Virus record (IMG/VR): IMGVR_UViG_3300031277_000002
Location: 1 to 61,854 of that record
DNA from: a virus
Taxonomy: Duplodnaviria; Caudoviricetes
Length of the DNA stretch: 61,854 bases
Direction: 5' to 3' (one strand)
In this document: positions 1 through 24,910 of the stretch, piece after piece
Layout of the letters: each line of letters opens with the position of its first letter
Position numbering within the stretch: the stretch's first letter is position 1
Notes under the pieces: generated by a model
Seen by the model: only the letters and a program-made list of their open reading frames with translations
The model's database searches: none
What the model was told of the DNA's origin: nothing
Position numbers and translations under genes: made by a program

Positions 1-1261
1 CAGGCCGGGACCAAAACAATTTATTAGTTTGTATGCTGATAGAAAGCATGGAAGAGAAAAAATAAAATATGATCACCCTTTGTTGGAAGATATATTAAAA
101 GAGACAAAAGGAATTATGTGCTACCAAGAAGAAATTATGGAAATATCTCGAACTTTGGCTGGATTTACTTTAGAGGAAGCAAATGTTATAAGAAAAGCTA
201 TGGGTAAAAAAATAGAATCATTGATGATAGAACAGGAGGAAAAATTTAAAAAAGGTTGTAAAAAAAATAATATTGATGAAAAAATTTATAATAAAATATT
301 TGAAGGAATTAAAAAATTTGCTTCTTATTCTTTCAACAAAGCTCACGCTTTAGCTTACGCTATGGTGGCGTATCAATGTGCTTTTTTAAAATCAAAATAT
401 CCTATAGAGTTTTATACAGCTTTGTTAAGAGTTGAAACAAATGATGTTAAAATAGATCATACAATTAAAGAAATGAAAAGTATGGGGATAAAAGTAAAAC
501 CATTAGATATAGAAATAAGTGATAAAAATTTTATAATTAATGATGATGTCGTTTATTATGGTTTTTGTAACATAAAAGGAATAGGAGAAAAGGCAGCGGA
601 AACTATAATAGAGGCTAGAAAGAAAAAACCAATAAAAAATTTTAAAGATTTTTTGTTGAATGAGCATATAAATAGAAGGGTTTGTAATAAAGGTATAGCT
701 GAAAAATTATTAAAAAGTTTTGTTTTTGGTAATAATTTTGAAGATAAACTTGAATTCTTAAAATGGTTTAATGATTCAAAACTTAAAAACAAAAAAGATT
801 CTTTGGAAAAAATATACAAAAACACAAAAAAGGGTTTTATATATTTGAGAGATGCGAATGAATTAAAAATAGAATATTTGACTGATGTAGAAAAAGTAAA
901 ATTAGAAAAAGAAATGTATTCTGCTAATTTAAGGCTTTCTCCGTTTGAGATAAATGGTAGAGAAGAAAAAATAAAAAAACTTGAAAAAAATAAAAAATCA
1001 GGAACATTTAAGAGTGGTTTTGAATATAAAACAGTTTTATTTAAAAACATAATAACAAGAAAAGATAAAAATGGAAACACTATGGCTTTTTTAGATATTG
1101 AGGATTTAAATGGCATTATTAAAAATGCGATAATATTCTCTAGTAATTTTGATAATAAACAATTAAAAGACGGTGTTTTTTGTGTTACCGGATCAGAGAG
1201 TGATAAATTTATTATAGATTCTTATAAAAATATTGATAATTTGTTTAAAAAACAACAATAA
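1..1261 (+). CDS. dnaE: DNA polymerase III alpha subunit, C-terminal part (5' end outside window)
   Basis: Frame is open from the window start (RPGP motif at nt 2-13). Motifs: ETKGIMCYQEE, RKAMGKK, FASYSFNKAHA, IKGIGEK (HhH), C-terminal OB fold (DKNGNTMAF). Confidence 0.93.
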   Translation, partial: RPGPKQFISLYADRKHGREKIKYDHPLLEDILKETKGIMCYQEEIMEISRTLAGFTLEEANVIRKAMGKKIESLMIEQEEKFKKGCKKNNIDEKIYNKIFEGIKKFASYSFNKAHALAYAMVAYQCAFLKSKYPIEFYTALLRVETNDVKIDHTIKEMKSMGIKVKPLDIEISDKNFIINDDVVYYGFCNIKGIGEKAAETIIEARKKKPIKNFKDFLLNEHINRRVCNKGIAEKLLKSFVFGNNFEDKLEFLKWFNDSKLKNKKDSLEKIYKNTKKGFIYLRDANELKIEYLTDVEKVKLEKEMYSANLRLSPFEINGREEKIKKLEKNKKSGTFKSGFEYKTVLFKNIITRKDKNGNTMAFLDIEDLNGIIKNAIIFSSNFDNKQLKDGVFCVTGSESDKFIIDSYKNIDNLFKKQQ

Positions 1262-1272
1262 AATCGTATATT
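1242..1272 (+). promoter_or_regulatory. Recurrent phage promoter, class A (TGTTWA-N15/16-TCGTATAWT)
   Basis: TGTTTA-16-TCGTATATT. The same bipartite motif recurs 14 times upstream of genes. Confidence 0.75.
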
Positions 1273-1287
1273 TAAATATAAAAAAAC

Positions 1288-1422
1288 TATGTATTTAAGA
1301 TACATCATAATTTTTATTTTGATTTAACTGAATGTAATTATTGGAGTAATGGAGATAATGTTTTTGTTAAACTTTTACCTACAGATGAAAAAATAATTGT
1401 AGAATTTTTTAATGAGGAATGA
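1288..1422 (+). pseudogene. Start-less remnant paralogous to the C-terminal half of ORF 24659-24910
   Basis: Reads YVFKIHHNFYFDLTECNYWSNGDNVFVKLLPTDEKIIVEFFNEE*, versus HYVVKISSNCYLDLTDGNCLDHAIYVLVKLLPPCEKVTVEFFNEE*. In-frame stop just upstream and no ATG. Confidence 0.7.
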
Positions 1423-1437
1423 GAATAGGGGTAATAT

Positions 1438-2289
1438 ATGTTTGAAAAAAATTGTTGTGATGGAATTTATAATTCGTTTGACATTCATTTTACAAGCGCT
1501 TGTGACAATAGATGCAAGCATTGTATAGACTCAAAATTTAAAGGGATTGGAATAAAGACCCCAGATATTAAGGCAATAACTAATACAATTATAAAAAATC
1601 AAGATGGATATGATGATGTACTGTTTCTTGGTGGTGAACCATGTCTATATTTAAATGAATTAATTGAATGTGTTGAGGTTTTAAAAGAAAAAACAAATTT
1701 AAAATTATTTGTAACTACAGCAGTTCCTAAAACTTGTTATGATAATTATGAAGAGTTTGAATATTTAATATCAATAATAGATGGAATAAACCTGTCGGTT
1801 CAAAGCCATAATGAAAAAATGGCCGATAATATACGATGTACTAAATCTAAATATGACAGACAAAAATTTTATAGTTGGTTGCCAATGAAAGAAAAAATTC
1901 GTATAAATCTTAATATAGTAAAGCCATATCTATATACTAAAAAAGATATAACAGAGTGTCTTTTGCATTATGATAAAATGGGATTTAATTCAATCAAACT
2001 ATCTGAAATACAACACGGAAAAGATTATTATGTTTCTTTTGAAAAAGTATTCGGATTACATTATGGTTCTGCTTATTTTAATGGGTGCCAAAAATATATA
2101 GATACATCAAAAATAATTCCAGGAATGAAGACACCATTATTATTAAAAAGGTCTTGTTTTTTATGTGAGGAAACATTAAAGGCGAATTTTTTAGACGCGG
2201 TAAAGGTTGTTCAAAAAATATGGAATCAGCCTAAAAATAAATATGCTGTTGTATACAGTAATGGATTATTAAGTAAAGGATGGATATAA
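1438..2289 (+). CDS. Radical SAM enzyme (candidate peptide maturase)
   Basis: CxxxCxxC (CDNRCKHC) and LGGEP motifs; extra Cys residues at the N terminus (NCCDG) and C terminus (GCQ...SCFLC). Confidence 0.9.
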   Translation: MFEKNCCDGIYNSFDIHFTSACDNRCKHCIDSKFKGIGIKTPDIKAITNTIIKNQDGYDDVLFLGGEPCLYLNELIECVEVLKEKTNLKLFVTTAVPKTCYDNYEEFEYLISIIDGINLSVQSHNEKMADNIRCTKSKYDRQKFYSWLPMKEKIRINLNIVKPYLYTKKDITECLLHYDKMGFNSIKLSEIQHGKDYYVSFEKVFGLHYGSAYFNGCQKYIDTSKIIPGMKTPLLLKRSCFLCEETLKANFLDAVKVVQKIWNQPKNKYAVVYSNGLLSKGWI

Positions 2290-2290
2290 T

Positions 2291-2401
2291 ATGTTTACAA
2301 AAATGTTGAGAAAAATTGTTGCGAAAATTAACAGAGAAAGACATCATAGTGGGCATTGTGATAGTGACGATAGTGGTAGTGGACATTGTGATTATTATTA
2401 A
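2291..2401 (+). CDS. 36-aa candidate RiPP precursor MFTKMLRKIVAKINRERHHSGHCDSDDSGSGHCDYY
   Basis: ATG lies 1 nt after the rSAM stop, with AAGGA upstream. Basic amphipathic leader plus duplicated SGHCD; the two copies differ by a synonymous Gly codon (GGG/GGA). Confidence 0.75.
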   Translation: MFTKMLRKIVAKINRERHHSGHCDSDDSGSGHCDYY

Positions 2402-2457
2402 ATAACAGGAAAATAATATGCCAAAAAAATATATAAGGAATAAAAAAAGAGGAAAAT

Positions 2458-2979
2458 ATGAAAAAAAAATTGTCTGATAAAAAAGGAAAAGTTGTAGTAA
2501 CTTCAGAAATTCCAGATGAATATAAAATTTTAAACATTATAGTAAACGGAAGAAATATTGTATTGAATATTGATAATATTCTTACTATAGCCAATTTGCA
2601 TAACGAATCTGAAGTTTTAAATTCTATGAATAAAGCATGCAGTTACTATCATTCTTTTTCCAGGATTGAATCAGATCTACAAACTTTGATTATTGATTGT
2701 GAGAAAAAGTTCAAAATTTGGATGTCTATTAAGAAAAGTGAATATAATTCAAAAGATTTTAATTCTGAATCTGCAAAAGAAAGAGCCGTAATAACTGATT
2801 ATGAAGAAGATTATTTAAAAAAGACAAACAAAATTGAAAAATTAAAAAGTTATGAAAAACAATGTTCCATTGCTAAAAAAGCTATGGAAAAACATGTTGA
2901 TATGATTAGGTCAATCGGTAAGATTGTCCATGATCAGAAATCAGATCCAAAAAACACATCTGATTCTGACGAAATTTAA
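2458..2979 (+). CDS. Helical protein, possibly a UvsY-like recombination mediator
   Basis: Coiled-coil-like protein of UvsY size, directly upstream of SSB and RecA; the call is mostly positional. Confidence 0.45.
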   Translation: MKKKLSDKKGKVVVTSEIPDEYKILNIIVNGRNIVLNIDNILTIANLHNESEVLNSMNKACSYYHSFSRIESDLQTLIIDCEKKFKIWMSIKKSEYNSKDFNSESAKERAVITDYEEDYLKKTNKIEKLKSYEKQCSIAKKAMEKHVDMIRSIGKIVHDQKSDPKNTSDSDEI

Positions 2980-2994
2980 AAGAAAGGAGAAGTT

Positions 2995-4026
2995 ATGCCA
3001 AAAAAATCATTAGCAAATGAGAATGATACCGCAGAAGTTAATAGAGTGATAGAGAGAAATTCTAACTCTAAAAAAATTATCAAAATTGAAAACAAAGCTT
3101 ATATAAGAATTATGTCAATTGAGTATAATACAGAGTTTGTTCATTTTATAGACAAAAAGCCTTATGTTTGTCTTGGTGACTTTTCAAAGGATGAAGGATA
3201 TGCTCCTAAAAAATGTCCAGCTTGCGCAAGTGTAGAAAAAAAATGGAATCAGTACAATGAAGCCAAAAAAGAAAAAAAAGAAAATTTAATGAAGAAAATA
3301 CTAGATGAGATAAATGATATTCAAACTCAACATCAAACAGCTATGGGGGCCGTTAAAGGGAATATAACAACAGAAGAGAACGAAGATGGAGAATTAGAAT
3401 CTAGGATTGTGTGGGAAAAAGAGGCTAAATGTTTACTTTTATCTTCAGCTCAGTGGAGAAAATTAACATCATCTATTTTTGAAGATTATGAATATATGAA
3501 ATCTTCAAAAGATATCATTAATAGAAGTTTGTTGTTTGTGAAAAAATCAAAAACAAACAAAAAAACAAACAATAAATATTCAGAAATAGAAATCAAACCT
3601 TCAAAGAAAAAAAGTGATCCTCCAGAAATTGAAAACGAATTGCCCGATTTAGAAGAGTTTTTTAATCATGTTTCAAGAGAAGAAATGGAAGATTTATTGA
3701 ACGAAGGTTCTGAAGAAAGTAAAAACCTGAAAGAAATTGACGAAGATCTCGAACTTGACCAAGAAGAAGAAAAACCAAAAAAGAAAAAATCAGGTTCCAA
3801 AAAAACAACAACTAAATCAAAAAAGAAAACCACGAAGAAAAAGGAAGAAAAGTACGAAGATTTAGAGGATGAAGATGAGGACGATGACGTTCCTGATTTT
3901 GTAAAAGACTCTGACGAAGATTTAGAAAAAACAACTGAAGAAGAAGATGATGATGACGATGATTTCGATGATGATCTTGATTTTGAAGACGATGAAGATT
4001 ATGACGATTTCGATGACGAAGATTAA
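2995..4026 (+). CDS. Putative ssDNA-binding protein (gp32-like) with long acidic tail
   Basis: H...C...CPAC Zn ligands; Lys-rich then Asp/Glu-rich C terminus; upstream of RecA. Confidence 0.65.
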   Translation: MPKKSLANENDTAEVNRVIERNSNSKKIIKIENKAYIRIMSIEYNTEFVHFIDKKPYVCLGDFSKDEGYAPKKCPACASVEKKWNQYNEAKKEKKENLMKKILDEINDIQTQHQTAMGAVKGNITTEENEDGELESRIVWEKEAKCLLLSSAQWRKLTSSIFEDYEYMKSSKDIINRSLLFVKKSKTNKKTNNKYSEIEIKPSKKKSDPPEIENELPDLEEFFNHVSREEMEDLLNEGSEESKNLKEIDEDLELDQEEEKPKKKKSGSKKTTTKSKKKTTKKKEEKYEDLEDEDEDDDVPDFVKDSDEDLEKTTEEEDDDDDDFDDDLDFEDDEDYDDFDDED

Positions 4027-5693: not shown

Positions 5694-6839
5694 ATGAAAG
5701 AAATAATTACGGCTGATTGGCATATTGGACAAACTTCTGATAGTTTTGTTGAAGATAATGGACAAGAAAGATCTATCAATGAAACAGAAAAACAAATGTA
5801 CTGTATTTTGGATTATGCAATAGAAAATAAAATAAAAAAAATAAATATACTTGGTGACATATTTGAAACTCAAAATCCAATAGCTAAACATAATGAAATT
5901 TTTAATAAATTTTTAAAAAAATGTAACAGTTTAGGGATAGAGGTTATTTTAGTTGCTGGAAATCATTGCCAAAATAATTCAGGAGGAGTTTCTTCTATAT
6001 CTCCTGTAAAAAAAATGAATTTTGAAAATATATCTGTTTTCGATGAAAAGATAGATAGTTATACATTTGGTGACATTAATTATATAATAATACCACATTT
6101 AACAAAAAAACAAATGGGAATAGAGAATATAAAAAACTATGAATCTGGTCAAAAAAAATATATAAAAGATGAGGTTTTGAAAAAGATAAAAAAAGATAAA
6201 AAAAATATTATTTTTACTCACATTCATATAAAAGGCGGAGTTATAGGGTCAGAACAAAAAAGATTGAGGGGTGGAATAAATATATTTCCAAAAATATCTT
6301 CAGGTAAAATAGATTTTATTTTTTCAGGACATCTTCATTCTTATCAAACAATTAAAATGGAAAATATAAATTGTTTTTATCCTGGATCAATAACCAGAAA
6401 TGATTTTTCTGAATGCAAAGAGGATAAAGGTTTTATAGTATTTAATAATGAAAAATTGAGCGTTGATTTTGTTAAATTAAAAACAACTGATTATAAAGTT
6501 GTAAGAATAAATTTGATAGAAAAAGGAAATATAAACCTTAACGAAGAAAAAGTAAAAAAATCTGTAAATAAAAAAATAGTTAAAATTGTAATAGATATTT
6601 CTGAAGATAATAAAAAAAGAATAAACTTAGAAGATATAATTAATATTTTTTCTAAATACTGTTTTGTAGCAAAAACCGAAGTAAATGTTATAAAAAAAGA
6701 AATTAAAATTTCAGAGATAAAGTCATATAATCCAATAAATGTTTTTAAATCTCATATAAAAAACAATGTAGAAAACAAAGAGCAAAGAATTTTTGTTTTA
6801 AACAAAGGTGTAGAAATTTTGACGGAGTTGTATAAATGA
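5694..6839 (+). CDS. sbcD: SbcD/Mre11-family metallophosphoesterase nuclease
   Basis: ADWHIG, GDIFE, GNH, SGHLH, YPGS motifs. Confidence 0.9.
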   Translation: MKEIITADWHIGQTSDSFVEDNGQERSINETEKQMYCILDYAIENKIKKINILGDIFETQNPIAKHNEIFNKFLKKCNSLGIEVILVAGNHCQNNSGGVSSISPVKKMNFENISVFDEKIDSYTFGDINYIIIPHLTKKQMGIENIKNYESGQKKYIKDEVLKKIKKDKKNIIFTHIHIKGGVIGSEQKRLRGGINIFPKISSGKIDFIFSGHLHSYQTIKMENINCFYPGSITRNDFSECKEDKGFIVFNNEKLSVDFVKLKTTDYKVVRINLIEKGNINLNEEKVKKSVNKKIVKIVIDISEDNKKRINLEDIINIFSKYCFVAKTEVNVIKKEIKISEIKSYNPINVFKSHIKNNVENKEQRIFVLNKGVEILTELYK

Positions 6840-6846
6840 AAATAGA
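6812..6846 (+). repeat. 35-bp direct repeat, copy 1
   Basis: AGAAATTTTGACGGAGTTGTATAAATGAAAATAGA, identical at 7976-8010. Confidence 0.95.
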
Positions 6847-7963
6847 TAACTTCATTAAAATGAATTTATTTTCAAATCAAATAATTAATGGTGATGCAAA
6901 ATTGGTTCTTACTAAATTAAAAGATTACTATTTAAATGAAATAAAATGTATTTACATCGATCCACCCTATAATAATGGTGATATATATAACCATTATAAT
7001 GATAAAAAATCTCATGAGGATTGGATTAATGAATTAGAAATTATATTAATAAATTTAAAAGAATTATTAACAAAAGATGGAAGTTTATGGATTTCTATTG
7101 ATGATAAAAACATGCATTATTTGAAAGTTCTTGCAAATAAAATTTTTGGTTTTAATAATTTTATTCACACAATTGTCTGGCAACATAGAACAACAAGAGA
7201 GAACAGAAATATATTTTCAAATAATCATGAATATATTCTTATTTATTCAAAATGTCGTGATTCATTTAAAAAAAGTAGAAACAAAATAATTAACAAAAAT
7301 AACAACTTATCAAGATTTAAAAATTATGACAATGATCCAAGAGGTCCATGGCAATCTGTAACAGCTCATGTACAAGATGGACATGCTGTAAGTTCACAAT
7401 TTTATGAAATTACAGCTCCTAATGGTAAAATTCATCAATTACCTAAAGGTCGTTGTTGGGTCTATTCAAAAGAAAAAATGAAAAAAGAAATTCAAAACAA
7501 TAATATATGGTTTGGAAAAAATGGTACTGGAGTACCTCGTATTAAGTATTTTAAGAAAAAAGATTCTCATTTAGTTACGCCAGAAACTCTTTGGCTTTCA
7601 GAAGATGTTGGAACGACAACAAAAGCAAAAAAACATATTTTAAAATTATTGGGGAAAGATGATATTGTGTTTGATACTCCAAAGCCTGAAGAATTACTTA
7701 ATAGAATTTTAAATATAGCAACTAATGAAGGAGATATTATTCTTGATTGTTTTCTTGGATCAGGAACAACAGCGGCAACTGCGCATAAAATGAATAGAAA
7801 ATATATTGGTATAGAAAAGAATAAAAATGCAGCCCAATACGCTTCTTCTAGGATAACTAAAGTAATTAATGGTGAAGATGGAGGAATATCTAAACTAGTA
7901 AAATGGAAAGGTGGTAATAGTTTTTCATCATTTATTCCATTTGAAAACTTGAATAAAAAATAG
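6836..7963 (+). CDS. Beta-class amino-DNA methyltransferase (Mod-like, probably N6-adenine), orphan
   Basis: YIDPPY, FDTPKPE and LDCFLGSGTT motifs. Confidence 0.9.
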   Translation: MKIDNFIKMNLFSNQIINGDAKLVLTKLKDYYLNEIKCIYIDPPYNNGDIYNHYNDKKSHEDWINELEIILINLKELLTKDGSLWISIDDKNMHYLKVLANKIFGFNNFIHTIVWQHRTTRENRNIFSNNHEYILIYSKCRDSFKKSRNKIINKNNNLSRFKNYDNDPRGPWQSVTAHVQDGHAVSSQFYEITAPNGKIHQLPKGRCWVYSKEKMKKEIQNNNIWFGKNGTGVPRIKYFKKKDSHLVTPETLWLSEDVGTTTKAKKHILKLLGKDDIVFDTPKPEELLNRILNIATNEGDIILDCFLGSGTTAATAHKMNRKYIGIEKNKNAAQYASSRITKVINGEDGGISKLVKWKGGNSFSSFIPFENLNKK

Positions 7964-10090: not shown

Positions 10091-10716
10091 TGATAAAATA
10101 TATTAAGTATTTTTTTTATATTATTGAACACAAGTTTAATGTAGGAATTGAGTGTTTTAATATGGGTTTATATTGGCATGCATTTACTCATGATTTAAGT
10201 AAATTTTTACCAGATGAATTTTTCCCTTATGCTAATTGGTTTTATAGTGAATATGGATTAAATTGGAAAAAAAATAGTAAACAAAATAGTAAACAAAGTA
10301 TAACTCATCATTTAGATAATAATTCTTTTTTTTTATCAAAATTAGTAAAAAGAAATTGGATAAGAATTTTAAAATTAAACTCTAAACTAGAAAGTGATTT
10401 TAATAAAGCTTGGGAAAAACATAAAAAAAGAAACAAACATCATCCAGGATGCCCAAGTCATTTAATGCTTTCTTTTGGTCAAAAAGAAGATATTCTTAGC
10501 CATAATGGAGGAATTTGCGAAGGAGTAAGGAATATTTTAAATTCTGATAAAGCTATTTTTGATATGTCAGAAAAATATATAAAACAAATGGTATGTGATT
10601 TGAAAGGAATGTCTCGAAAATTTGGCGGTACAGCAAAAGAGTATTATGATAAAAACAAGAATGATTTTAAATTATCAAAACAATCAAGAAAAAAACTAGA
10701 AGAGTTGTTACAGTGA
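10090..10716 (+). CDS. HD-like phage protein (DUF5662-like)
   Basis: HDLSKF..DEF, H...NKHH and MVCD motifs. Confidence 0.6.
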   Translation: MIKYIKYFFYIIEHKFNVGIECFNMGLYWHAFTHDLSKFLPDEFFPYANWFYSEYGLNWKKNSKQNSKQSITHHLDNNSFFLSKLVKRNWIRILKLNSKLESDFNKAWEKHKKRNKHHPGCPSHLMLSFGQKEDILSHNGGICEGVRNILNSDKAIFDMSEKYIKQMVCDLKGMSRKFGGTAKEYYDKNKNDFKLSKQSRKKLEELLQ

Positions 10717-11024
10717 TAGATAAAAAAAGAGATTCTAGGTGGTCAGTTGCAGTAAGAAAAAAATATTTTAAAAGGTGTCCTCATTGTGGAAAATTTCCTG
10801 ATGGTGGAGTTCATCATATAATTTCAAGAAGCAACACAAATACAAGATATGTTTTAGAAAACGGTATTTTAACCTGTTTTAAATTTCATAGAGATTTTGA
10901 AAATATAAACAAAAAAGATAAGTTGATAAAAATGTATATTGGGGAAGAAATTTATAAAAAGCTTAAAGATTTATCAAGAGGAAAGATTTCTTTAGAAGAG
11001 TCTGGATTTACGGAGATAGAATGA
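10713..11024 (+). CDS. Small HNH/NinG-like nuclease
   Basis: CPHCG, HHIISR, N...C..FH. Confidence 0.7.
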   Translation: MIDKKRDSRWSVAVRKKYFKRCPHCGKFPDGGVHHIISRSNTNTRYVLENGILTCFKFHRDFENINKKDKLIKMYIGEEIYKKLKDLSRGKISLEESGFTEIE

Positions 11025-15502: not shown

Positions 15503-17878
15503 ATGGATTTAGATAAATTTACTGGGAACATAATAGATTTAATTCAATCTGATGATGATATAATCAAAAAAGAATCTCAAGACATATTCTTTTCAATGAA
15601 AAACAGAATAAAGGATTTCATAGAATTTTCTAAAGGATCTGGAGATATGAAAACCTTTGTTGAAGAAAATCGGGTAATTTATGGCAGAAATTTTTCATAT
15701 GAAGATGCAAAAATAAGCATGATGCTTGGGGATGAAGATAAAAAAAATTTAAAATTAAACAAAGATAGCCAATTAGTTAAGGCTCCTAGAATATATTTAA
15801 ACCAATATCAAAATGACAAAACAAAAGACAAATCTACGATTAAATGTAGGCAATGTCTTCCTGGATTCACGTTTGTTATCGTTATTAACGATAGACAAGA
15901 AAGGGAATTTAAAACAATCAAATCCTTGTATTTAAAGAATTATAGAGGAAAAATTCTTTATAATAAAGATGGAGAATATGCAGTTGCGAGAGTTTTAGAT
16001 GTTTGGAATTCTGGAAAAAAAGATATATTAGAGATAGAAACGGTTACTGGACAAAAATTAAAATGCTCTACTTTACATAAAGTGTGGCTACCTCAAAAAA
16101 AAATGTTTATTTGTGCCAACCTTTTAAAAAATGATGATTTTTTAAATGTATATTATGAAAAAAATAGCATAAACAGTAAAATTAAAAAAATTAAAAAATC
16201 TAAAAAAGAAAATACTTATGATTTGTCAATATCAGATAAAGATTATCATAATTTTTATGCGAATGGAATTTTAGTTAGCAATTCAGAAATGACAGAAAAT
16301 GAAATAAATGAAAATATTTATTTGTCAGTATCAAGGCCATATACAAATGTTAGGCACATTTTTCCAACTTCAGGAATGGCTCAAAAAATATCAAAAGAGA
16401 AAATAAGCGTAGCTATAGAAAAATCTCCAAATTTAGCAATTCATCTAAAGAGGCCTTATAACTTATTAAGTAAGGCTTTCAAAAATGGGAGTTTTTACAC
16501 AATTGATTCTTCGTGGACAGATTATCAAGGAAGGGGTCCAAGCTCAGATAAATTAACTTTTGATGAATATGAAAGTCAAAATCCTCAAATAGAGGATATT
16601 TTTTCTGAGTCAACTTCTCATAGTGAATTAGGTAAAAAAACTAGAATATCAACTCCTGTTTTTCCGAATTCTGGCATTGACCTTATGTTTCAAAAAGGGT
16701 GTGGATATACTTGGCATATTACTTGCCCTAACCCAAAATGTAAAAAAGAACAAATTTTAGAATTTCCTGATAATATAATTAATTTTTTTGAAATAGGTGG
16801 AGGTATAAGTACAGTAAGTGAAAATTATTTAAAAAAATTAAATAAAGTTTATCTCGGTTGTAAATTTTGTGGAGCATATATAGATAGAACAACGCAGGTT
16901 TATATAAAAAATTCAAGATGGATACCAGAAAGACCTCATTTGATTCACGATAGAGCTTCTTATAGAATAACTTATATGATGTTACCATGGAAAACAGGAA
17001 AAGAAATATTGTATAAGTACCACACTTTTAGATTTGTTCATCAGTTTTGGAATGAAATAATGGGATATGCTTATTTGGATAAAGAATCTCAAATAACAAG
17101 AGAAATATTTGAACAATGTATTGACCCGAGTTTTGTCAATACATACCAAAGACTCGGAAATGCAAAAAACGTAAGTGTTGGGATAGATTGGGGTACAGTT
17201 TCATGGGTAACAGTTGTGGCAAACAATTTTCTTCCCGAGCAAAAAAATCCAAAAGTGATATATGTGGAAAAAATAGATGATGAAAGTTTGAAAAAAAATG
17301 GATATTCCGCTGCTCAACAAACAGATCATGCAAAAAGAGTATGTGACATAATAAAATTTTTTAAGGCCAGGATTGTTGTTAATGATGCAAACGGAATAGG
17401 GGTTGATAGGAATTCTTATTTGGTTAGAAAATTTCCTACTAGAGCTTATGGATGTTTTTACGATACAGACGAAAGAAAAAAACAAAAGGCAAAAAAGAAT
17501 TTAATTAAACCAATGTGGAACGAAGGACAAAAAACAGTAACTGTTTCACGGGTTGGGTCCTTTAAAAATTTACTTCAGAGATTTGAAGAAAAACAGTTGA
17601 AAATACCAAAGCTTGATCCATCTGTAGAAGAGTTTATTCAACATTTGGCAAATCTTGTTGTTGAAAGATATGAGGACGAAAACACTGGAGCTTTATATGA
17701 AGTGATAGGGAAAACCGGACCAGATCACCTGGGTCACTCAACAAATTATGCATTAATTGGGTTTGAGAAGATAGTCAACATTGATAGAGAAAATTCAGGG
17801 TCCGGAATAATAACAAATCCAAATAAAATAAATGAAGATATTTTAAAGCAATTAAAAAAAGTACAACAACCTTATTAA
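15503..17878 (+). CDS. terL: Terminase large subunit containing a mini-intein
   Basis: KCRQ^SEMTE Walker A-like motif split by the intein; Walker B TFDEYE, ISTP, Zn CPNPKC/CKFC; nuclease GIDWG and C-terminal PDH. Confidence 0.88.
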   Translation: MDLDKFTGNIIDLIQSDDDIIKKESQDIFFSMKNRIKDFIEFSKGSGDMKTFVEENRVIYGRNFSYEDAKISMMLGDEDKKNLKLNKDSQLVKAPRIYLNQYQNDKTKDKSTIKCRQCLPGFTFVIVINDRQEREFKTIKSLYLKNYRGKILYNKDGEYAVARVLDVWNSGKKDILEIETVTGQKLKCSTLHKVWLPQKKMFICANLLKNDDFLNVYYEKNSINSKIKKIKKSKKENTYDLSISDKDYHNFYANGILVSNSEMTENEINENIYLSVSRPYTNVRHIFPTSGMAQKISKEKISVAIEKSPNLAIHLKRPYNLLSKAFKNGSFYTIDSSWTDYQGRGPSSDKLTFDEYESQNPQIEDIFSESTSHSELGKKTRISTPVFPNSGIDLMFQKGCGYTWHITCPNPKCKKEQILEFPDNIINFFEIGGGISTVSENYLKKLNKVYLGCKFCGAYIDRTTQVYIKNSRWIPERPHLIHDRASYRITYMMLPWKTGKEILYKYHTFRFVHQFWNEIMGYAYLDKESQITREIFEQCIDPSFVNTYQRLGNAKNVSVGIDWGTVSWVTVVANNFLPEQKNPKVIYVEKIDDESLKKNGYSAAQQTDHAKRVCDIIKFFKARIVVNDANGIGVDRNSYLVRKFPTRAYGCFYDTDERKKQKAKKNLIKPMWNEGQKTVTVSRVGSFKNLLQRFEEKQLKIPKLDPSVEEFIQHLANLVVERYEDENTGALYEVIGKTGPDHLGHSTNYALIGFEKIVNIDRENSGSGIITNPNKINEDILKQLKKVQQPY
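15854..16282 (+). mobile_element. Mini-intein (143 aa, no homing endonuclease) in terL
   Basis: Starts CLPGFT; block B CSTLHKV; block F TYDLSI...HNFYANG; ends ILVSN followed by Ser+1. Confidence 0.88.
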
Positions 17879-24658: not shown

Positions 24659-24910
24659 GTGTTTAGAATTAGAATTACAGATAAAACAGAAGATCAAGAA
24701 ATTATTAAAATGACTGACATTCCTTATAATTCAGTGGCTATAGTTGTAAATAACGAAGATGGTTTTAACGGCCATTATGTAGTTAAGATAAGTAGTAATT
24801 GTTATTTGGATTTAACTGATGGTAATTGTTTGGATCATGCGATTTATGTTTTAGTTAAGCTTTTACCTCCATGTGAAAAAGTAACTGTAGAATTTTTTAA
24901 TGAGGAATGA
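24659..24910 (+). CDS. Hypothetical protein; intact paralogue of the remnant at 1288-1422
   Basis: AAGGAG RBS; shared C terminus. Confidence 0.65.
   Translation: MFRIRITDKTEDQEIIKMTDIPYNSVAIVVNNEDGFNGHYVVKISSNCYLDLTDGNCLDHAIYVLVKLLPPCEKVTVEFFNEE

Follow-up and report, generated by a model that had tools for sequence, protein, structure and literature searches.

A conserved two-gene phage unit of a radical SAM enzyme and its putative peptide substrate

The viral record IMGVR_UViG_3300031277_000002 (Duplodnaviria; Caudoviricetes) carries the gene of a radical S-adenosylmethionine (SAM) enzyme of 283 residues (1438-2289) and, immediately behind it, a gene for a 36-residue peptide with two Gly-His-Cys motifs (2291-2401). 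Both, like all features of the pair given below, lie on the plus strand of the window, by which we mean the entire linear record of 61,854 bases (26% G+C, CheckV completeness about 68%). The two genes form a conserved unit that is widespread in large uncultured phages. The explanation that fits them best, and that we consider probable, is a self-contained enzyme-substrate pair, leader-guided and Cys-centred, with a putative second iron-sulfur (Fe-S) cluster and, more tentatively, a local carbon-sulfur bond. A preliminary description of this DNA had proposed a two-gene unit of the kind that makes peptides synthesized by the ribosome and modified after translation (RiPPs), with an enzyme of an uncharacterised subfamily. 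That proposal is supported by the co-occurrence of the two genes, their fusions, the selection acting on the peptide, the lack of a third partner, the lack of a matching curated family and a model of the complex. No description of the enzyme-peptide pair was found in the openly accessible literature searched, as represented by its listings and the opening parts of abstracts. If the reading is true, the pair would define a new class of peptides modified by radical SAM enzymes, made by a minimal maturase of 283 residues, and a clear case of a conserved phage-encoded system of post-translational modification. Leader recognition without an RRE domain, together with a three-Cys second site, would then be of interest to enzymologists and peptide engineers.

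Conservation of the enzyme-peptide unit

In the window, the TAA stop of the enzyme gene (2287-2289) and the ATG of the peptide gene (2291) are separated by the single base 2290. A purine-rich, Shine-Dalgarno-like stretch lies within the end of the enzyme gene, 7-15 nucleotides (nt) 5' of the ATG (2275-2283); GGAG-type stretches occupy the same site in the relatives' loci, and translational coupling of the two genes may be inferred. The open reading frame (ORF) of 36 residues translates as MFTKMLRKIVAKINRERHHSGHCDSDDSGSGHCDYY. Residues 1-20 make up the putative leader (2291-2350) and residues 21-36 the putative core (2351-2398), which opens with the first Gly-His-Cys motif (GGG CAT TGT, 2351-2359) and carries the second (GGA CAT TGT, 2381-2389) three residues from the C-terminus. 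The preliminary description had recognized the enzyme by its CDNRCKHC and GGEP motifs and had placed the small ORF 1 nt past its stop; both are read in the sequence as described. When all six frames of the 61,854 bases were searched for stop-to-stop segments of 15 residues or longer with at least two motifs of the type [GAS][HG]C or [GAS]CH, the 36-residue ORF alone was returned.

The association of the two genes extends well beyond the window. A small ORF lies at the enzyme stop in all ten close viral loci (63-70% identity), and each of the peptides combines two GHC motifs with the leader M-[FYW]-T-[KR]-x-L-R-K. One 136-kb phage contig (L005, 3858-4050) encodes two tandem peptides, of 27 and 33 residues, with one enzyme gene, each peptide having its own ribosome-binding site and two GHC motifs. 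A wider, profile-guided viral scan gave 70 loci, three of which (L072-L074, with 29% identity over at most 132 residues and unrelated C-terminal parts) were dropped. At 52 of the remaining 67, an ORF with at least two [GAS][HG]C motifs lies on the same strand within 510 nt downstream of the enzyme, which is the outcome expected in the preliminary description, where scanning the homologues for downstream GHC-repeat ORFs had been put forward as a check. The corresponding controls gave no case in antisense (0/67) and a single one upstream (1/65), the latter being a genuine partner placed ahead of its enzyme (L067). With [GAS]CH also allowed, partners number 62 of 67: 59 downstream (two of them about 750 nt away, behind an inserted gene), one upstream and two joined to the enzyme frame. 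Gly/Cys-rich tails directly downstream of the enzyme at four further loci (L039, L041, L042 and L066) bring the total to 66 of 67; the last locus, L068, at 27% identity, shows no partner within its 6.9 kb. Many of the 67 loci are near-duplicates, and the distinct peptides number 26 in the clade at 53% identity or more.

Partners were also present on both contigs of metagenome-assembled genomes (in a scan with a single protein, reaching close relatives only) and at both Lak megaphage loci, when these were read with TAG as Gln. A 462-residue ORF 5' of the Lak enzyme (Lak-C1, L011, 914-2302, minus strand) is open only with 12 TAG codons read as Gln. The GenBank phage collection yielded 15 Lak records, plus two records of an unrelated 194-residue enzyme only, and a plasmid collection held no match to the enzyme. 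A natural four-motif peptide of 62 residues, used as a query, matched six unnamed proteins.

None of the other genes of the window is found near the enzyme in the other loci, and all-against-all clustering of the flanking ORFs revealed synteny at the level of lineages only, with no further shared gene cluster. Since no third neighbouring gene is conserved, the conserved unit is exactly two genes. In a T4-like clade with Gly/Cys-tail partners (L039, 1301-2996), genes for a NadR-like protein (cytidylyltransferase plus AAA_28) and a PnuC nicotinamide mononucleotide transporter lie 5' of the enzyme and baseplate gp25 lies 3' of the pair; this is lineage synteny, and none of these is a conserved partner.

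In an alignment of 22 distinct relatives of the peptide, M1, H22, C23, G31, H32 and C33 are invariant, and T3 and G21 are conserved in at least 90%. The leader residues M1 and T3 and the motif residues are thus kept, and the spacing within the core varies. The arrangement matches that of a RiPP locus, in which the leader of a ribosomally made precursor is conserved, its core varies, and the gene of the modifying enzyme is adjacent. In the window, the two SGHCD copies of the peptide differ by one codon only (GGG versus GGA), a synonymous difference that the preliminary description had taken to be consistent with selection at the peptide level. The relatives bear this out: in 26 peptides with 53 motifs, GHC is encoded in 14 of the 16 synonymous ways possible, so selection on the motif is at the level of amino acids.

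Farther out in the family, the core takes several forms. G-H-C cores, in two or four copies, characterize the clade at 53-70% identity and some distant members, and G-C-H cores occur in several distant lineages; both orders are found within single peptides at four loci (L054, L060, L033 and L034). In a clade at 37-42% identity and in the Lak phages, Gly/Cys-rich tails (GGCG-like, with Cys at the end) are carried on proteins of 90-166 residues, whose helical N-domains match no Pfam family. Across all these forms Cys is the only invariant residue; next to it stands a His, on one side or the other, or a Gly. The emphasis of the preliminary description on the SGHCD repeat is refined accordingly: the invariant core residue is Cys alone, with a neighbouring His on either side or a Gly. 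At the Gly position of the motif, several peptides and tails have Ala, Ser, Asp, Glu or Asn instead. Motifs number from 1 to 7 and are spaced 2 to about 20 residues apart, two Cys per peptide being the commonest state. The existence of single-motif tails, together with the variable spacing, argues that whatever happens would be local to each motif.

Core flavour and enzyme clade go together. A tree of the enzyme with 63 rows places the Gly/Cys group on one branch with 100/100 support, and none of 500 shuffles was as clustered; the HC and CH orders interchange on the tree three or four times.

In some lineages the peptide is part of the enzyme itself. Among 270 stored proteins, 58 have at least 295 residues, and 12 of these 58 carry a Cys motif in their last 45 residues; the motif of one of them (P0168) lies inside the enzyme domain, leaving 11 true fusions. 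Most of the 11 fused tails are of the G-C-H type and follow the conserved C-terminal Trp through a short linker. A viral scan with eight fused proteins found seven family loci, all fused (7/7), one with a CH-type tail and six with a helical linker and a single terminal G-G-C-x-Y; a viral scan with the fused protein P0125 alone found no relative. The coexistence of split and fused forms is strong evidence for a direct physical relation between enzyme and tail, and in the fused lineages the product may remain attached to the enzyme.

Other joined forms were noted. In P0161 (695 residues) another radical SAM domain is joined to the N-terminus of a family member, and P0165 (361 residues) has an HTH_17 DNA-binding domain at its end, with a single Q-C-H-G behind it. 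At two viral loci the frames of peptide and enzyme run together, through a change of frame close to the enzyme end at L021 and through loss of the C-terminal half of the enzyme at L063; for both joins, sequencing error, decay and real fusion are each possible.

The enzyme, its family and the predicted complex

The enzyme belongs to the radical SAM superfamily by its CX3CX2C motif, profile score, GGE motif and partial TIM-barrel fold, and within it to an unnamed phage-borne subfamily. The motif for the radical SAM [4Fe-4S] cluster (CDNRCKHC, with C22, C26 and C29; 1501-1524) and the SAM-binding motif GGEP (G65-P68; 1630-1641) both fall in invariant columns. The Pfam models Radical_SAM (PF04055; 42 bits versus a gathering cut-off of 29.5) and Fer4_12 (32.3 versus 22) cover residues 17-141 only, and only 21 residues precede the cluster motif. 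Neither the enzyme nor any of ten distant family members reached a curated NCBIfam cut-off. The best scores were 39.6 versus 129.7 bits for the TatD-linked radical SAM model, 36.9 versus 262 for TIGR04100 and 34.7 versus 180 for prokaryotic viperin. MoaA, NrdG, PflA, PapB and PqqE all gave about 22 bits or less (NrdG and PflA 17.1-22.3 versus 126-232), and SPASM-family models gave 11-22 bits versus cut-offs of 340-400. For QueE, no NCBIfam model appeared at E<=1, and a profile search of the PDB gave E 8e-4 only. The preliminary description had named QueE, NrdG and MoaA as the families whose company would speak against it, and no cut-off was reached for any of them.

The family is large and anonymous. 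At E<=1e-5 it comprises 950 clusters (90% identity) in a collection of 5.8 billion proteins, and at 50% identity 276 representatives among 1.84 billion sequences. Source labels on the relatives read 'organic radical activating enzyme' at most, and beyond 'radical SAM' the family is without a name in Pfam, NCBIfam, PHROGs and PADLOC. The nearest ESM Atlas clusters are 100% viral, and the contigs that carry the enzyme range from a few kb up to about 540-550 kb in the Lak megaphages.

An alignment of 50 full-length members (27-65% identity) shows N5, C7, D8, C22, C26, C29, G65, G66, E67, P68, P97, S120, E190, C217, C240 and K256 to be invariant in all 50. The extra Cys residues that the preliminary description had picked out in NCCD, GCQ and SCFLC are all present, and one of each is among these positions: C7, the second Cys of NCCD (codon 1456-1458), C217 of GCQ (2086-2088) and C240 of SCFLC (2155-2157). 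In the C-terminal half, C217 and C240 are the only invariant Cys, and all three are invariant in the divergent fused subfamily as well. Because these three accompany the Cys of the SAM cluster without exception, we infer that C7, C217 and C240 hold a second Fe-S cluster with one open site, in which C7 would be a candidate auxiliary ligand.

The AF2 model of the enzyme is confident (predicted local distance difference test, pLDDT, 95.8; predicted template-modelling score, pTM, 0.91). Foldseek found 74 matches in the PDB at E<=0.001, and those listed are all radical SAM enzymes; CteB (5why) comes first, with E 2.9e-10 and TMq 0.61. Viperin, SuiB (TMq up to 0.63), MoaA (2fb2, TMq 0.62), PFL-AE, anSME and EpeE are further matches to the generic radical SAM core. 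The C-terminal 95 residues of the enzyme have no PDB profile match.

A complex of enzyme and peptide was modelled with custom alignments for both chains, SAM and two 4Fe-4S clusters. Its score was 0.75, and the best of three controls reached 0.02; the score mark is attained by 58 of 80 solved complexes and by 2 of 110 mismatched pairs, a calibration that is rough here given the custom alignments and the small molecules. Contact agreement between runs was at least 37% and the pLDDT of the partner at least 53. In the model, leader residues 2, 3, 6, 7, 9, 10 and 13 contact enzyme residues 241-243, 247-249, 253-254, 257 and 260-261, and the C-terminal docking surface as a whole comprises residues 240-243, 247-249, 253-254, 257, 260-261 and 264; C240 thus begins the modelled docking stretch, 240-264. 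Enzyme residues 5-7, 217 and 240 all fall within the predicted interface, with C7 beside peptide residues 22-23. The first Gly-His-Cys motif comes close to C7 and residue 243 and the second close to residue 192, each with an expected error of about 6 Å. As a prediction, the model supports binding of the peptide by the enzyme.

Proposed mechanism and rival explanations

It is likely that the peptide is the substrate of the enzyme. We propose that its amphipathic N-terminal leader (MFTKMLRK...) docks on the C-terminal helix and strand of the enzyme, at about residues 240-264, and that this surface would replace the RRE domain of classical RiPP maturases. Docking would deliver the Cys-centred core motifs to the active site, where the radical SAM cluster (C22, C26, C29) would cleave SAM to give a 5'-deoxyadenosyl radical, and the second Fe-S cluster (C7, C217, C240), through its one open iron site, would bind the substrate thiolate. 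A local carbon-sulfur bond might then form within or beside each motif, as in sactipeptide and ranthipeptide synthases. The modified peptide, or the modified tail of the enzyme itself, might act inside the infected cell or be freed at lysis, because conservation of the pair does not extend to any exporter or protease. In keeping with the preliminary description, which had seen no transporter or protease nearby, none was detected among the ORFs of the window tested, up to 17.9 kb.

Several known systems offer points of comparison. The closest in logic are the sactipeptide and ranthipeptide systems (CteB-CteA 'SCIFF', PapB-PapA, AlbA, SkfB), in which, as here, a radical SAM enzyme adjoins a leader-plus-core peptide with reactive Cys. 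The second cluster of CteB, the top fold match of the phage enzyme, has an open site that binds a substrate Cys. Unlike these synthases, the phage enzyme is without a SPASM or twitch domain or an RRE; it has only 283 residues, and where they have about seven extra Cys it has three, of which one is N-terminal. Its leader is modelled on the C-terminal helix, and the PapB model scores it at 14.6 bits versus a cut-off of 340. The cores of the phage system are G-H-C, G-C-H or G-G-C, and the system is phage-borne and has fused forms. By analogy with these systems, thioether-type chemistry is possible, and we put it forward as a tentative and somewhat doubtful assignment. MoaA also has a three-Cys second cluster with an open site for its substrate, which is GTP; the phage enzyme shares the three-Cys logic and the fold and differs in the positions of the Cys, of which one is N-terminal, and in its score (15.9 versus 284 bits).

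The enzymes of the mycofactocin (MftC, MftA, MftB) and PQQ (PqqE, PqqA, PqqD) pathways act at the C-terminus of a very small peptide. Several phage tails that end in G-G-C-x-Y or G-H-C-Y are reminiscent of such a reactive end. The mycofactocin and PQQ enzymes have SPASM domains and require an RRE protein and further pathway genes; the PqqE model gives the phage enzyme 14.4 versus 381 bits, and no further pathway genes are conserved in the phage loci. Borosins, whose core is found either on the C-terminus of the enzyme (the fused OphMA type) or as a separate small gene (the split bacterial type), resemble the phage family in having split and fused architectures side by side. The parallel is one of architecture only, borosin enzymes being SAM-dependent N-methyltransferases and not radical SAM enzymes. 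Viperin and its prokaryotic counterpart pVip are the closest named sequence relatives of the radical SAM core, with a similar stretch around the cluster motif. They differ from the phage enzyme in lacking its three-Cys second site, in model scores (34.7 versus 180 bits for NF038283, 16.5 versus 450 for TIGR04278) and in a PDB match that ends at residue 187; to our knowledge, viperin has no peptide partner.

A number of observations weigh against the proposed enzyme-substrate pair. Modification of the peptide is itself deduced from sequence and a docking model, and the second cluster from three Cys only. The preliminary description had stated that no SPASM or RRE domain is apparent, and indeed SPASM (at E<=0.1), twitch and PqqD/RRE domains have no Pfam match in the enzyme; because these domains are undetectable, the analogy with sactipeptide and ranthipeptide synthases is one of logic, not of homology. 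By sequence profile, the nearest PDB entries are viperin-like (E 2e-17, positions 15-187 only), and viperin modifies nucleotides. PADLOC likewise returns pVip only (39 bits, E 1e-10, down to 6e-16 for fused members), and the NCBIfam viperin_w_prok match has E 1e-8. Frequent fusion of the tail would fit a stoichiometric part of the enzyme as well as a substrate. Part of the score of the complex could reflect recall of solved complexes of radical SAM enzymes with peptides; those solved, such as SuiB with SuiA, have at most 17% identity to the enzyme and a different docking site. Ten alignment columns that separate His-type from Gly-type enzymes were considered as a sign of co-evolution and rejected, as the contrast reflects a single branch.

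The most serious alternative, which we nevertheless find unlikely, is that a viperin-related enzyme acts on another substrate, for example a nucleotide, and that the Cys peptide or tail belongs to its working parts, in stoichiometric amount. One role for the tail could be that of a swinging arm that donates redox equivalents or hydrogen atoms, comparable to the Cys-bearing C-terminus of class I ribonucleotide reductase; others could be to provide the second cluster with its fourth ligand or to donate sulfur sacrificially. Three Cys from the enzyme and one from the peptide would complete a cluster, two Cys per peptide are the commonest state, and in many lineages the tail is fused to the enzyme through a short linker; the viperins are the nearest named relatives of the core, and the pair in the window lies within a replication and recombination module. 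That neighbourhood carries no weight, since the genomic context is not conserved, and the viperin match concerns the common radical SAM core only, far below the cut-off, with the nucleotide-binding C-terminal part unmatched. The range in motif number (1-7) and spacing (2 to about 20) is typical of repeated substrate cores, and some phages (L005) have two tandem peptides. One can also imagine, with a comparably small probability, a scenario in which a viperin-related radical enzyme installs a new Cys-centred link on the docked mini-peptide or on its own tail, in which the Cys could be bonded to the His or Gly next to it or to a radical derived from a nucleotide. So modified, the tail would work stoichiometrically in the infected cell and would not be exported like an antibiotic peptide; it might aid host takeover or evasion of defences in the form of a cofactor derived from protein, of a metal or redox centre, or of a conjugate of peptide and nucleotide.

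The other explanations considered are less probable still. An unmodified metal-binding mini-protein with two His and two Cys, serving as a metal or Fe-S chaperone or in some unrelated role, would suit the motifs, as His/Cys and Gly/Cys are classic metal ligands, and it would take account of the indirect case for modification. We find it quite improbable: variable spacing, exchange of His for Gly across a whole clade and single-motif tails are ill-suited to a defined site, and the conserved leader-like helix and the fusions point to a direct relation with the enzyme. A glycyl-radical activase of the PflA/NrdG type, generating a stable radical on the Gly of GHC, is called to mind by the label borne by the relatives, by the Fer4_12 domain and by the presence of PFL-AE among the fold matches. 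It is very improbable: the motif Gly is replaceable, the NrdG and PflA models score only 17-22 bits versus cut-offs of 126-232, no domain resembling a glycyl-radical enzyme is present, and activases have no need of three extra Cys. Finally, 36 unannotated codons in DNA of 26% G+C might be a chance reading frame that is paired with the enzyme by coincidence. This idea is refuted by co-occurrence with clean controls, synonymous variation of GHC, the fusions and the uniqueness of the ORF in the window.

Genomic setting of the pair

Upstream of the pair, the C-terminal part of DNA polymerase III alpha ends at 1261 and is followed by a 176-nt spacer. Downstream lie genes for a 173-residue protein and an acidic 343-residue protein, neither of a known family, then RecA and an SbcD-like phosphoesterase. 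The position between dnaE and the recombination genes given in the preliminary description is thereby confirmed. The promoter of its own that the same description had assigned to the pair was not confirmed: a generic sigma-70 consensus scan of 1100-3100 found 23 sites versus 16.4 +/- 4.0 in shuffles, and the sole candidate 5' of the enzyme (1244-1272) is weak, with a score of 9 out of 12. No terminator-like site was found in a consensus scan of the same interval.

Part of the spacer has a recognizable origin. Positions 1290-1423 (135 nt), just 5' of the enzyme gene, are a decayed copy, at 86% identity, of 24778-24910, the 3' end of an 83-residue gene (24659-24910), with its last codons and stop included. 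This decayed gene end at the border of the enzyme gene suggests that the enzyme-peptide cassette may have arrived by recombination along with the paralogue fragment.

Farther 3' the window encodes a DNA methylase, SbcC, a DUF5662 protein, an HNH protein, a 5'-3' exonuclease, a UvrD-type helicase, a PDDEXK nuclease and an intein-bearing large terminase. The N6/N4 DNA methylase lies between the SbcD-like and SbcC genes, and the HNH endonuclease belongs to the same replication and recombination module (6836-7963 and 10713-11024). The terminase, an ORF of 791 residues (15503-17878), carries both a large-terminase ATPase domain (GpA_ATPase) and an intein splicing domain.

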